Shown here: in pieces, positions 53,716-58,890 of the stretch
Numbering within the stretch: the first letter of the stretch is position 1
Layout: each line of letters starts with the position of its first letter
NCBI RefSeq assembly: GCF_011045215.1
Contig: NZ_CP049201.1
Source of the DNA: Escherichia coli
GTDB lineage: Bacteria; Pseudomonadota; Gammaproteobacteria; Enterobacterales; Enterobacteriaceae
Reading direction: 5' to 3' (one strand)
Length of the DNA: 64,000 nucleotides
Made by a program: the position numbers and the translations under genes
Notes under the pieces: model-generated
Database searches by the model: none
The model's input: only the letters and a program-made list of their open reading frames with translations
What the model was told of the DNA's origin: nothing

Positions 53716-56238
53716 ATGAGTCTGACAGATACACTTTCAAAAACTATCTCTGTTTCCCTGAATCGTTACCATTTAATTATTCCCTCCTGCCCGTCACCAC
53801 TGGATGTTGAGCATTTCAGCGGCAGGGAGGAGATGAGTCAGACCTATTATTACATCATCAATTTTACCAGTACTGACAACGACCTGGATGCCGGGCTGCT
53901 GCTGCGTAAATCAGCCACATTTACAATGGGTACGGGAGGGCTTAAGGAGCAGGTGAGCCAGAAAGTAGTACATGGTGTCATTACAGATTTTCGCCGTATA
54001 TCGGGCTCCGCCGACCAGGCAAAATACCAGGTGATACTGGAACCATTTATTAAACTACTGGACAGGCAGCATCGTTCTCACCGATTTTTCGTTAACAAAT
54101 CGGTGCCGGAGGTGGTGACAGAGGTTCTCCAGGAGCACGGTCTGAAAGGCTGGGAGTTTGAGTTCCGTCTCAAAAAAACGTATCCGAAGCGTGAACAGAT
54201 TAACCAGTATCAGGAAAGTGACCTGCAATTTATTCAGCGTTTGCTGGCTGAAGTGGGGATTTTTTATTTTTTCACCCTGCAACCGGACACGCAGACGGAA
54301 GTGGTGCATTTTGGTGACAGCCAGGCAGCGCTGACGTTTGATAAGACGCTGGCGATAAACAGTCCGTCCGGAATGAATGATAACAGAGCGGATTCAGTGT
54401 GGGGGCTGAATGTGACGCACAATGTGGCAGAGGCTAGTGTCACCACAAAGGCTTATAACCATCGTGAAGCACAATATCTGTTGCAGTCCGCCCCGGCAGA
54501 CATGACGCATGGTGATGGTGACGGAATTAACTATGGTGAGGTGTACCACTACCATTTCCGTCATCTGGAACGGGGGGATAAAATCGACCCGGTGCCGGAG
54601 ACGGCCAATTTTTATGCCCGCCTTGGTCATGAACGCTATCTGGCGGAGCAGGTACGGATAACCGGTAACAGTACAGACGCCACGCTGGCACCTGCTCAGG
54701 TTCTGACTATCACCGACAGTCTTCCGCCGACGTTGCCTGCGCTGCTGCGCAATCCGGTGTTGCTTACCTGTGTCGGTTTTTCTGCAAGTCGCAAGGATGC
54801 CCTGCAGGTTGTACTGAAGGGCGTTCCTTACAGTGAAGTTATCTGCTGGCGTCCTCCTTTACTGCCCCGTCCGAAAGTTACCGGTACCATGACGGCCCGT
54901 GTGACCAGTGCAAAAGAAGGGGATATCTACGCCTGGCAGGATGCATCAGGTATGTACCGGGTGAAATTTGATGCTGACCGTGATGATAAAAATCCAGGAC
55001 AGGAAAGTATGCCGGTACGTCTGGCCAAACCCTACAGTGGTGATGCTTATGGTTTTCATTTTCCGCTGATTCAGGGAACGGAAGTGGCCATTGCTTTTGA
55101 GGAAGGTGATCCGGATCGTCCCTATATTGCGCATGCCCTGCATGATTCACGTCATGTTGATCACGTTACCGATAAGAACGGTACGCGCAATGTTATCCGT
55201 ACGCCAGCAAATAACAAATTGCGAATGGAGGATAAGCGCGGCGAGGAGCATATCAAGCTCAGTACCGAGTATGGCGGTAAGACACAACTTAATCTTGGCC
55301 ATAACGTTGATGAGGAGCGGGTGGTTAGAGGAGAAGGTGCAGAGTTGCGCACTGATGATTGGGTGGCAATTCGGGGGGGGAAAGGGATTTTATTAAGTGC
55401 CGACGCTCAACCAAATGCTGATGGTGTAATGCTTGATATGCATAAAGCTATACAGCAGTTGGAACATGCTCTTGCTCTTGCAAAAAGCCTCGGCAAAGCA
55501 GCTGAGACAGCAAAAGCAACTTCGGCAGATTCAGATAGCCAGTCTATTTTGAAAAGTGCGCTGTCCGGGTTGCAAAAACCAGGGATATTAGCACATTCAC
55601 CTATGGGAATTGGTGTGGTAACTCCAGAAGCAGTACGGATTGCTTCTGGAAATCAGAGTGTAGGAATAGTTTCTGGTCGTAATACGGATATTACTGCAGC
55701 TCAGTCAGTAACTGTTGCGGCATCGAATTCTGTCAGCCTATTTGCGCAAAGTGCGGGGATGCAACTTTTTGCAGGGCAGGGCAAAGTGGATGTGCAGGCT
55801 CAGGGAGATGCGCTGAATCTCCAGGCACTAAAGGACGTCACAGTTACTAGTAATCGTGGTAGTGTAACGTTAAGCGCTAGTAAGGAGTTAACTCTTGTTT
55901 GTAATGGTGCTTACATCAAGATCAGTGGCGGAAATATCGAACTTGGATGTCCAGGTAATATTCTGCTTAAATCTGCGAATGTGCAAAAAATGAGAGCGGC
56001 AAACTTAAATCTATCTCCTCAGGTGTTGCCTAAAGGATTCAAGGGAGGATTTACAATAACTAATCAGGATACGGGGGAAGTGATGCCGTACATCCTTTAT
56101 AAGATAACTACCGCAGAAGGTGATGTTTATTCAGGTACAACAGATAAACTTGGCAATACCATGCCAATTTATACAGCGTCGCCATCATTAATGAAAATTG
56201 AGTTTCCTCTAAGCAGTGAACAAGGAGGGGCATTATGA
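53716..56238 (+). CDS. vgrG: VgrG (TssI) spike protein with C-terminal extension
   Basis: 840 aa; gp27/gp5-like core plus ~150 residue C-terminal tail. Confidence 0.95.
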   Translation: MSLTDTLSKTISVSLNRYHLIIPSCPSPLDVEHFSGREEMSQTYYYIINFTSTDNDLDAGLLLRKSATFTMGTGGLKEQVSQKVVHGVITDFRRISGSADQAKYQVILEPFIKLLDRQHRSHRFFVNKSVPEVVTEVLQEHGLKGWEFEFRLKKTYPKREQINQYQESDLQFIQRLLAEVGIFYFFTLQPDTQTEVVHFGDSQAALTFDKTLAINSPSGMNDNRADSVWGLNVTHNVAEASVTTKAYNHREAQYLLQSAPADMTHGDGDGINYGEVYHYHFRHLERGDKIDPVPETANFYARLGHERYLAEQVRITGNSTDATLAPAQVLTITDSLPPTLPALLRNPVLLTCVGFSASRKDALQVVLKGVPYSEVICWRPPLLPRPKVTGTMTARVTSAKEGDIYAWQDASGMYRVKFDADRDDKNPGQESMPVRLAKPYSGDAYGFHFPLIQGTEVAIAFEEGDPDRPYIAHALHDSRHVDHVTDKNGTRNVIRTPANNKLRMEDKRGEEHIKLSTEYGGKTQLNLGHNVDEERVVRGEGAELRTDDWVAIRGGKGILLSADAQPNADGVMLDMHKAIQQLEHALALAKSLGKAAETAKATSADSDSQSILKSALSGLQKPGILAHSPMGIGVVTPEAVRIASGNQSVGIVSGRNTDITAAQSVTVAASNSVSLFAQSAGMQLFAGQGKVDVQAQGDALNLQALKDVTVTSNRGSVTLSASKELTLVCNGAYIKISGGNIELGCPGNILLKSANVQKMRAANLNLSPQVLPKGFKGGFTITNQDTGEVMPYILYKITTAEGDVYSGTTDKLGNTMPIYTASPSLMKIEFPLSSEQGGAL

Positions 56239-58145: not shown

Positions 58146-58890
58146 GAACATGATGTACATCTTTTCTTTTTTTTTGTTAGGGTGTGATAAAAATGAGTCA
58201 TTGAATCCTCCATCCAATGGTGAAATGGTTTCTGTAATTGCAAAGATGCCAGCGGGCAGTAAAATATTGCCATTGGAAATTATGTATCGTTCAACCACTT
58301 GCTTGAAGAGTCGTAAAGATTCAAATGGAGGTATAGTAAAAGAACCAGGATATTATTTTGTCAAGAAAGAATTCAATTCTGTATCAGACGATAATATATT
58401 TAATCTGAAGATTCCACGTGATGGTGGAGGGCAGTGTAACTGGGAGTTAAGCAACATAACGTTAGGGTTCTATTTAAAAGAACTTCCTTCAGGTAAAGAT
58501 GAAAAGAGTGAGAATATACCAATTAAAGAAATTATTGTGTTTGATGATAATTCACCTCAGCGGCTAAGTGGAACATACGAGATTATTAATGGAGATGTTA
58601 CACTGAAAGAGAATTACTTTCCTTTAATTACAAAGCGCAGGAATAGCAATACCTTATTGGAATATTCCATTGTCAGGTCTTCACCAGATGTGATTTATAA
58701 ATCAACATCGGCAAAAAAAGTTATTTTTGAACCAAGGATTCATTTTTCAAAAGTTTTACGCGCGACAGAACCGACAGGGCAAAAAGTCGGAGTGTATATG
58801 TCGGTGTTGTATCCTGATGGAACTATCGAGAATGGGCCATATTTCCCTAATTACAAAAAACTTCAGTTCCTTGAGAGAGGTAATGATTGA
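58129..58890 (+). CDS. Lipoprotein, putative Tle immunity protein (Tli)
   Basis: ORF 58114..58890; lipobox FFLLGC after signal peptide; directly follows the lipase. Confidence 0.7.
   Translation: MRILIKNMMYIFSFFLLGCDKNESLNPPSNGEMVSVIAKMPAGSKILPLEIMYRSTTCLKSRKDSNGGIVKEPGYYFVKKEFNSVSDDNIFNLKIPRDGGGQCNWELSNITLGFYLKELPSGKDEKSENIPIKEIIVFDDNSPQRLSGTYEIINGDVTLKENYFPLITKRRNSNTLLEYSIVRSSPDVIYKSTSAKKVIFEPRIHFSKVLRATEPTGQKVGVYMSVLYPDGTIENGPYFPNYKKLQFLERGND

Follow-up and report, generated by a model that had tools for sequence, protein, structure and literature searches.

A putative Tle2/Pdl-type lipase-lipoprotein cassette in the T6SS-1 cargo slot of Escherichia coli

The window analyzed here, a stretch of 64,000 nucleotides (nt) of Escherichia coli contig NZ_CP049201.1 (assembly GCF_011045215.1) to which all coordinates refer, is a type VI secretion system (T6SS) gene cluster of the E. 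coli Sci-1/T6SS-1 type. A region spanning the 3′ part of its vgrG gene and the DNA up to paar is likely to be a T6SS-1 cargo cassette, made up of the tail of the VgrG spike protein, a class-3 lipase that would act as an effector delivered by the T6SS and a lipoprotein that would provide immunity, both the enzymatic activity and the protection being putative. The lipase-lipoprotein pair very likely belongs to the Pdl/Tle2-type class-3 lipase family, a placement based on the full-length homologs found in Aeromonas veronii, the Aux1-like layout of that locus and the definition of Tle2 in the literature; Vibrio cholerae VC1418 is linked to it by layout and description. Sequence comparison further indicates that an incoming AT-rich block of ~4.3 kb replaced the resident effector module by recombination.

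The basic organization of the locus agrees with a preliminary description of this DNA, which had reported a vgrG gene with a C-terminal extension, an ATGA overlap with a 636-aa hydrolase bearing a GHSLGG nucleophile elbow and a downstream gene for a lipobox lipoprotein. The 840-aa vgrG open reading frame (ORF; 53716-56238) continues for ~80 residues past the DUF2345 domain, the ATGA at 56235-56238 is common to the vgrG stop and the lipase start, and GHSLGG is present at lipase aa 340-345. While the longest ORF of the lipoprotein begins at GTG 58114, its likely start is ATG 58129 (58129-58890), with AAGGAAGAG directly upstream; RefSeq places the start at the same ATG in the near-identical STEC313 locus (99.5% identity). 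Translation from this codon yields MRILIKNMMYIFSFFLLGC, in which the Cys of the LLGC lipobox is residue 19, and the gene overlaps the 3′ end of the lipase gene by 17 nt. The AT-richness noticed at the outset is pronounced, with a GC content of 0.369 over 55310-59493 (lipase gene 0.363, lipoprotein gene 0.349, spacer 0.284) compared to 0.540 in the upstream T6SS core and 0.513 in the downstream genes, and within the 3′ third of vgrG GC declines, going from 0.54 to 0.43. The extent first given for this module, 53716-58890, has to be amended: the AT-rich block is real, but its limits lie at ~55.15-55.34 kb inside vgrG and within paar (59494-59560). The product of the latter gene matches PAAR_motif (Pfam, E = 2e-24). 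The features of the locus are:

53716-55250, plus strand: 5′ two-thirds of vgrG, resident E. coli type (gp27/gp5 spike core); left homology arm of the swap.
55251-56238, plus strand: 3′ third of vgrG, moving with the cargo; end of T6SS_Vgr, DUF2345 beta-helix extension and transthyretin-like (TTR-like) tail.
55558-55989 (aa 615-758), plus strand: DUF2345 extension of VgrG.
56038-56211 (aa ~775-832), plus strand: TTR-like tail of VgrG.
56235-58145, plus strand: putative class-3 lipase effector, 636 aa, without signal peptide.
56301-56477 (lipase aa 23-81): N-terminal TTR-like beta-sandwich.
Lipase aa ~110-179: second beta region.
Lipase aa ~189-460: lipase core.
Lipase aa 496-627: C-terminal helical domain.
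57252-57269 (lipase aa 340-345): GHSLGG.
57408-57410: lipase D392.
57558-57563: lipase H442/H443.
58129-58890, plus strand: cognate lipoprotein, 253 aa, presumed immunity protein.
58129-58185 (lipoprotein aa 1-19): signal peptide and lipobox LLGC.
58891-59493, no strand: AT-rich spacer between the lipoprotein gene and paar, part of the cassette; GC 28%.
59494-59760, plus strand: PAAR gene, right homology arm; first ~65 nt mosaic, remainder of E. coli type.

The suggestion that the module is a swapped cargo cassette is directly supported by the mosaic structure of VgrG, together with the mapped breakpoints and the GC contrast. Two loci were used for comparison, a Tle1-carrying E. coli cluster (L002) and the cluster of Enterobacter nematophilus (L006). 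Up to ~55150 the vgrG DNA is 99-100% identical to that of the former and 54-84% identical to that of the latter, and along the 3′ third identity to the Tle1-type vgrG drops to 47-69% as identity to the E. nematophilus gene climbs to 80-91%. At the protein level residues 1-530, 531-760 and 761-840 show 99, 59 and 36% identity to the Tle1-type VgrG and 72, 90 and 88% identity, respectively, to the VgrG of E. nematophilus, whose gene stands before a 71%-identical lipase in the equivalent slot. The left change-over falls between ~55150 and 55340; on the right side identity to the Tle1-carrying cluster resumes at 59504, with scattered mismatches to ~59560, and then holds at 98.5% to 64000. Besides the 3′ third of vgrG, the exchanged unit (~4.3 kb) contains the genes for lipase and lipoprotein as well as a 600-bp spacer of 28% GC. 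Homologous cassettes ordered vgrG(ATGA)-lipase-lipoprotein-paar occupy the same slot in E. nematophilus and Raoultella terrigena. As the Tle1 cassette of the E. coli comparison cluster is likewise AT-shifted (0.43 vs 0.54), low GC is seemingly typical of the cargo in this slot.

The spacer (58891-59493) is 68% identical over 404 nt to its counterpart in E. nematophilus and is missing from the Tle1-type locus. A search of the spacer for the remnant of a second immunity gene found none, no terminator-like site was detected in it and promoter-like sites occur at chance level; Rfam gave no credible match across 52500-60000, the single listed match falling outside the spacer. A 31-aa hydrophobic ORF (MKCFLSSLRTLSIMFFVPIIFFIFQYECWSK) is located at 59050-59145, and nothing indicates that it is a gene.

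The position of the cassette can be identified with the known vgrG-tle-tli-paar cargo slot because in other E. coli, such as strain F2_407_2_2, the equivalent place is occupied by a ‘Tle1-EAEC’ gene and two ‘Tli1-EAEC’ genes. This fragment differs among E. coli strains, which encode Tle1, Tle3 or Tle4 according to a review that makes no mention of Tle2, and it houses experimentally proven T6SS effectors (PMC6730261). The window displays the traits expected of a T6SS-1 cargo slot, namely a VgrG that is long and carries both DUF2345 and a TTR-like tail, an effector gene and a lipoprotein gene placed between vgrG and paar, and a surrounding tssB...tssM cluster. Counterparts of the 5.2-kb region with 99.5% identity were detected in six out of 5426 complete E. 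coli genomes, all of them belonging to E. coli that make Shiga toxin (STEC), obtained from beef, mutton, goat or food, and in these six carriers the region is bordered by tssH plus two small ORFs on one side and by paar-tssM-tssA-tssF-tssG-tssJ-tssE on the other. Another 63 genomes share portions of vgrG only, ~28 of them matching the first ~1685 nt at 95-99% identity and 33 matching at 60-80%.

With respect to the putative effector, Pfam (E <= 0.01) returned Lipase_3 (7.7e-21, aa 272-400) plus a sub-threshold Hydrolase_4, no match was obtained in NCBIfam and RefSeq labels the exact protein as ‘lipase family protein’. The catalytic domain has the hallmarks of class-3 lipases (PF01764/cd00519), and PDB sequence searches using either the single sequence (E <= 10) or a 32-sequence family profile (E <= 1) retrieved only fungal and plant class-3 lipases, feruloyl esterases and EDS1, and no T6SS lipase structure. 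S342, D390, D392, H442, H443, C129, C172 and R175 are, among others, invariant in 32 homologs (39-88% identity), and D392 aligns with the Asp ahead of the conserved P-V-P of a fungal lipase, which we take to be the catalytic Asp of that enzyme. Ser342-Asp392-His442/443 is a candidate catalytic triad, the His being either 442 or 443; the absence of a triad, initially regarded as an observation that would speak against an effector function, was not encountered at the sequence level. Neither a signal peptide nor a transmembrane or hydrophobic segment was found in the lipase, which fits export by the T6SS. An AlphaFold2 model (pLDDT 81, pTM 0.84) is composed of four parts: two beta regions, the core and a helical C-terminus. 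In the non-catalytic N-terminal half C129 (56619-56621) and C172 (56748-56750) are invariant, and C217 is nearly so, among the 32 homologs; these residues could form a disulfide after arrival in the oxidizing periplasm.

The lipoprotein has no sequence match in Pfam, NCBIfam or the PDB. Its family is small, with only 173 clusters (50% identity) at E <= 0.001 in a profile search of 1.84 billion representatives. The lipobox C19 is kept in at least 90% of the sequences, and Y53, C58, C103 and W105 are invariant in 57 diverse members of the family. The mature protein is all-beta and, given that C58 and C103 are its only cysteines besides that of the lipobox, they are probably joined by a disulfide in the periplasm. 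According to the Lol sorting rules of E. coli, Asp at position +2 after the lipid-modified Cys favors retention in the inner membrane and Lys at +3 may weaken this signal. Both residues are present in the window protein (CDK), and Asp +2 is frequent among its closer enterobacterial relatives; since the +2 residue varies across the family, inner-membrane sorting as a family-conserved property was not upheld. These lipoproteins could inhibit class-3 lipases in a manner unseen in solved Tle-Tli complexes.

The association between both genes is nearly obligate. A scan of one genome per species (100,044 species), run with clade-specific patterns, produced 224 loci, and the best 80 of these, 79 of them distinct, all correspond to Enterobacterales or Pseudomonas. 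A lipoprotein homolog lies at the 3′ end of the lipase gene, or not farther than ~60 nt from it, in 77 of these 79 loci, and the lipoprotein gene is found in relatives as 1-6 tandem copies. In a first type of context vgrG abuts or overlaps the lipase gene (E. nematophilus, Raoultella, Cedecea, Biostraticola, Pantoea, Erwinia and Hafnia), and in a second type a gap of some 450-650 nt separates vgrG from the lipase gene. In some loci of the second type, including E. coli E69 (L086), Lelliottia (L085) and P. serbica (L023), the gap contains the gene of a conserved 141-150-aa polytopic membrane protein (L086 2250-2681; L085 6515-6946; L077 3668-4099; L060 6496-6948; L023 6407-6832). This protein, with an N-terminus of the form ~MK...W..FDLFYI.RF.WLN.SQGRIPL.DD, goes with a paralogous lipase branch, is distributed from Enterobacterales to Pseudomonas and could represent an extra immunity or loading factor.

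The Pseudomonas homologs share 38-40% full-length identity with the window lipase and several are named ‘Pdl protein’ by their sources, while distant members of the lipoprotein family were found in Xenorhabdus, Aeromonas and Diaphorobacter. In A. veronii the gene of a short, 514-aa VgrG is followed by that of a DUF4123 adaptor, a Lipase_3 gene and a homologous lipoprotein gene, the layout known for V. cholerae Aux1 (vgrG1-tap1-tseL-tsiV1). The A. veronii lipase gene consists of two ORFs (207 and 475 aa; 31-32% identity; profile E 1e-33 and 8.5e-80) that jointly span the lipases of this family from end to end, N-terminal domain included. These ORFs (L087 6939-9004) are parted by a stop codon and a 14-nt gap, the immunity gene being intact, and the split lipase is either a pseudogene or the result of a sequencing error. 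In Pseudomonas citronellolis (L003) immunity homologs are encoded on both sides of the lipase and no vgrG is nearby; a 79-aa ORF (4350-4589) that separates the lipase gene from the second lipoprotein gene contains a sequence (…YRVRTRECKVHDGVTDKHD…DIGFP) that resembles the TTR-like tail of VgrG and may be a relic of the 3′ end of a cassette-borne vgrG.

The window VgrG matches Phage_GPD, Phage_base_V, T6SS_Vgr and DUF2345 in Pfam as well as TIGR01646 (1.1e-98), and its residues 1-831 align with the solved VgrG of enteroaggregative E. coli (EAEC), 6sjl. All the VgrGs that abut members of the lipase family have a tail with the motif TT[AGQ]EG[DE]x[YF]xG...P[SG]xx[KV][IV]x[FY]. Because the Tle1-type VgrG has the same motif, cargo specificity probably sits in the diverged residues of the 531-840 segment and not in the mere presence of a TTR-like tail. 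No ORF, and hence no DUF4123 (Tap-1/TEC) adaptor gene, separates vgrG from the lipase gene, suggesting that an adaptor would not be needed; by analogy with EAEC VgrG1-Tle1, the lipase is probably mounted on the C-terminal extension of VgrG. The co-transferred C-terminal module of VgrG (DUF2345 plus TTR-like tail) may do the job of the DUF4123 adaptor. Two readings are advanced jointly and tentatively, as a proposal somewhat more apt to fail than to hold: that this clade is an adaptor-independent Tle2/Pdl branch, and that its immunity protein represents a structurally uncharacterized family of lipoproteins with two beta-sandwiches. If the branch is indeed adaptor-independent, spike tail and cargo would constitute one exchangeable specificity unit.

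Altogether, a VgrG-dependent lipase effector and immunity arrangement, as proposed in the preliminary description, is favored by the slot, the ATGA overlap and the pairing with the lipoprotein, and the following sequence of events can be envisaged. Sequence comparison shows that the cassette was acquired by homologous recombination between the vgrG core and paar, the incoming block deriving from another Enterobacterales lineage. The lipase, translationally coupled to vgrG, would be loaded without a DUF4123 adaptor onto the co-transferred VgrG extension, in analogy with EAEC VgrG1-Tle1. Judging from the work on Tle2/TseL and Pdl1, contraction of the sheath would then take the lipase on the spike into the periplasm of a neighboring Gram-negative cell, where Ser342-Asp392-His442/443 would hydrolyze membrane glycerophospholipids. 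In sister cells the lipoprotein, exported by Sec/Lsp and anchored facing the periplasm, would bind and neutralize the lipase; antagonism of a lipase of this kind by its partner has been shown only for Photorhabdus Orf53/Orf54 and Pseudomonas aeruginosa TsiP1/2 (PMC3355079, PMC9927574).

Several points weigh against this scheme. In a third genomic context many lipase-lipoprotein pairs are orphans, with no vgrG within 7 kb, and linkage to vgrG is not universal. The loop between D392 and H442 (aa 395-437) is modeled at pLDDT < 50, as a disordered insertion. The study of Pdl1 proposed another role, an enhanced release of toxin complex (PMC3355079). In addition, the N-terminal TTR-like domain of the lipase is also present in the DUF4123-linked Aeromonas homolog; its candidacy as an adaptor substitute is weakened by this observation, as this domain alone cannot replace the adaptor.

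Four other explanations were considered. That the lipase is mainly an anti-eukaryotic effector acting on host or protist membranes, with a lipoprotein that only guards against fire from sister cells, is improbable, even if P. aeruginosa TseL promotes host-cell internalization (PMC9927574), Pdl-containing islands of Photorhabdus asymbiotica are toxic to insects and nematodes (PMC3355079) and the carriers of the cassette are STEC from ruminants and meat. A tightly coupled gene for periplasmic immunity, with 2-6 copies in relatives, is the signature of interbacterial antagonism. This explanation is nonetheless compatible with a T6SS-1 cargo cassette, and dual targeting is possible.

A function on the producer side, as proposed for Pdl1, appears very improbable. 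The lipase would act on the envelope of its own cell and facilitate the release of toxins or surface proteins, and the lipoprotein would be a dosage-dependent brake. With Pdl1, more Tcd toxin complex is released, as are some E. coli proteins, and Orf53/Orf54 counteract Pdl1 (Yang et al., 2012, PMC3355079), and Pdl1 itself was not detected in supernatants (PMC3355079); the many orphan pairs mentioned above would also be consistent with such a function. In the window, however, the lipase gene overlaps vgrG inside the T6SS core cluster, in a slot of proven T6SS effectors (PMC6730261), the C-terminal third of VgrG co-transfers with the lipase and no toxin-complex genes adjoin it. Moreover, Tle2-type homologs of P. 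aeruginosa kill bacteria in a T6SS-dependent manner (PMC9927574), and the phenotypes of Pdl1 fit leakage caused by a periplasmic lipase that has not been neutralized.

The catalytic spacing of the lipase (S342/D392/H442-443) is strikingly close to that of the Enterobacter cloacae Tle (Ser341/Glu393/His448), an enzyme that is activated by Tli-dependent Arg-Lys glycation cross-linking (PMC11470151). A Tle6-like behavior, in which the lipoprotein activates as well as neutralizes the lipase, would also agree with the overlap of both genes, yet it is extremely improbable. Tle6 immunity proteins are built of ankyrin repeats, whereas the window lipoprotein is all-beta without any ankyrin match; the Tle6 structure was retrieved neither by the single sequence (E <= 10) nor by the family profile (E <= 1); in the 32 homologs no conserved Lys lies behind the catalytic His and position 451 is variable; and Tle2-type lipases are reported to be active without their immunity proteins (PMC11470151, PMC9927574). 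A silent or decaying passenger, either AT-rich DNA silenced by H-NS or an inactive enzyme, is hardly credible in spite of the low GC (28-37% vs a 54% background) and the rarity of the cassette (6/5426 genomes), as the three ORFs are intact here and in six independent genomes (99.5-99.7% identity), every invariant residue of the family is kept and the signals for translational coupling are preserved.

The neighborhood of the cassette includes additional genes without assigned function. A second low-GC stretch (0.39-0.45) at 52733-53637, between tssH/clpV and vgrG, contains two ORFs, the first of 226 aa (213 aa according to RefSeq) and the second of 83 aa, hydrophobic and without RefSeq annotation in STEC313. 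Neither the 226-aa nor the 83-aa ORF has a Pfam or NCBIfam match; both are inside a stretch 97.4% identical to the Tle1-type E. coli cluster, and E. nematophilus carries 184-aa, DUF7480 (154-aa) and 69-aa genes at this position. Straight after paar and ahead of tssM, a 382-aa ORF (59764-60912) with a hydrophobic N-terminal region shows no Pfam or NCBIfam family; a 384-aa counterpart is kept at the equivalent position in the Enterobacter and Raoultella clusters, and the protein is an uncharacterized accessory component of T6SSs of this type.

As a putative T6SS-1 cargo cassette, the region adds a Tle2/Pdl-type lipase as a fourth type to the E. coli slot, beside Tle1, Tle3 and Tle4 of the review cited above (PMC6730261). 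It also provides a natural example of a route by which cargo is swapped, since recombination within vgrG carries the C-terminal third of the spike, the cargo and the immunity gene together. Three naming traditions are joined for what is apparently one effector-immunity family: Pdl/Orf54 in Photorhabdus, TseL/Tle2 in Vibrio and Pseudomonas, and ‘lipase family protein’ and ‘hypothetical protein’ in annotation. Neither protein family appears to have a solved structure, and the pair is a reasonable target for studies on lipase inhibition and adaptor-free loading of VgrG. Among STEC, the cassette distinguishes a small set of strains associated with food and ruminants, which would be armed against other bacteria with, and immune to, a toxin unlike that of most E. 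coli.

Regarding the known systems, Tle2 proteins are class-3 lipase T6SS effectors, such as TseL and the Tle2 of PAK and PA7, that are associated with DUF4123 adaptors and with immunity proteins of 263-298 aa with signal peptides (PMC9846239, PMC9927574). The window pair has the GxSxG motif and Ser-Asp-His residues of Tle2, as assessed at the sequence level, and the lipase gene adjoins both vgrG and a gene for a periplasm-targeted immunity protein; loading through a DUF4123 adaptor, a canonical, non-defining trait of Tle2 in V. cholerae and P. aeruginosa PAK, is not represented. The Tle subfamily, left open in the preliminary description, could in this way be narrowed to class-3 lipases (Lipase_3) of the Pdl/Tle2 type. 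The pair shares with V. cholerae TseL/TsiV1 (VC1418/VC1419) and P. aeruginosa TseL(PA)/TsiP1-2 a Lipase_3 GxSxG lipase of ~640-700 aa encoded beside vgrG and a periplasm-directed immunity protein of ~260-300 aa. The essential His466 of P. aeruginosa TseL is the first of the HH pair in ‘PLVHHRMV’ (H466A primer; PMC9927574), comparable to YWH442H443G in the window, and the adaptor-layout Aeromonas locus encodes full-length homologs of both window proteins. On the other hand, the window lacks a DUF4123 gene, its VgrG is long (840 aa) and encoded by a gene overlapping that of the lipase, its immunity gene is downstream, single-copy and codes for a lipoprotein, and the cassette is part of the main T6SS-1 cluster and not of an auxiliary vgrG island. 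P. aeruginosa TseL is also clearly more distant than the Pseudomonas ‘Pdl’ homologs: the 120 best matches of a search seeded with the P. citronellolis homolog included no protein of P. aeruginosa, and the window family has other termini than those that the published TseL(PA) primers encode. A metagenome scan with the published tseL(PA) 5′ primer gave no match.

Pdl1 of Photorhabdus luminescens (AAL18491) is a putative lipase antagonized by the translationally coupled proteins Orf54 (AAL18490) and Orf53, which bear type II signal peptides, and it was already noticed that pdl-orf54 pairs occur next to T6SS genes of Vibrio and Pseudomonas (PMC3355079). The window pair resembles this system in the coupling of the lipase gene to that of a small protein with a type II signal peptide (here through a 17-nt overlap and with LLGC), and the tandem, self-similar copies of the small-protein gene find a parallel in the 1-6 copies of the window-family relatives. 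At the sequence level the connection to Pdl1 and Orf54 is only indirect, through the ‘Pdl protein’ labels in Pseudomonas and the Xenorhabdus lipoproteins that are distant members of the immunity family. In contrast to the window, where no tc gene is nearby and vgrG overlaps the lipase gene, the gene of Pdl1 belongs to a toxin-complex island, and its product was taken to enhance secretion.

The closest parallel in cluster type and slot (clpV ... vgrG-tle-tli-paar) is the EAEC Sci-1 VgrG1-Tle1-Tli1 system (PDB 6sjl), reportedly characterized by Flaugnatti et al. in 2016 and 2020. There, too, the effector gene overlaps vgrG, no adaptor is encoded and the immunity protein is a lipoprotein. However, Tle1 contains DUF2235 in place of Lipase_3, the immunity proteins are unrelated and the residue after the lipid-modified Cys is Asn in Tli1 and Asp in the window, so the membrane of residence may differ. 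The assignment to Tle1 was rejected, as no DUF2235 or NCBIfam Tle1-EAEC match was obtained and blastp against the Tle1-EAEC-type protein of the comparison cluster gave E = 0.048 over 46 aa, which is not significant. The DUF3274 domain of Tle3 and the PLD-type HxKxxxxD domain of Tle5, families said to have been so defined by Russell et al. in 2013, are both absent, Lipase_3 and the sub-threshold Hydrolase_4 being the only Pfam domains detected (E <= 0.01), and these types were discarded as well.

Tle6, represented by Tle/Tli of E. cloacae and Slp of Serratia, is similar in its fungal-lipase-like alpha/beta-hydrolase, its occurrence in Enterobacterales and its vgrG-tle-tli order (PMC11470151). 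It differs in the ankyrin-repeat immunity protein, compared to a two-domain beta protein in the window, and in the acid residue, Glu instead of Asp, and no sign of the Arg-Lys cross-link pair is seen in the window. Tle6 was rejected despite the near-identical catalytic numbering, on account of the non-ankyrin immunity protein and the lack of a match to the solved Tle6 lipase in the PDB searches. Knowledge of the effector family dates back to 2012-2013, and the arrangement is a textbook one. Less ordinary are the adaptor-less version of a family usually described with DUF4123 and an immunity family without a Pfam or NCBIfam profile or a solved relative. In this context, the T6SS-1 slot of E. 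coli with a cargo of Tle2/Pdl type is a rare variant of a well-known arrangement and not a new kind of system.

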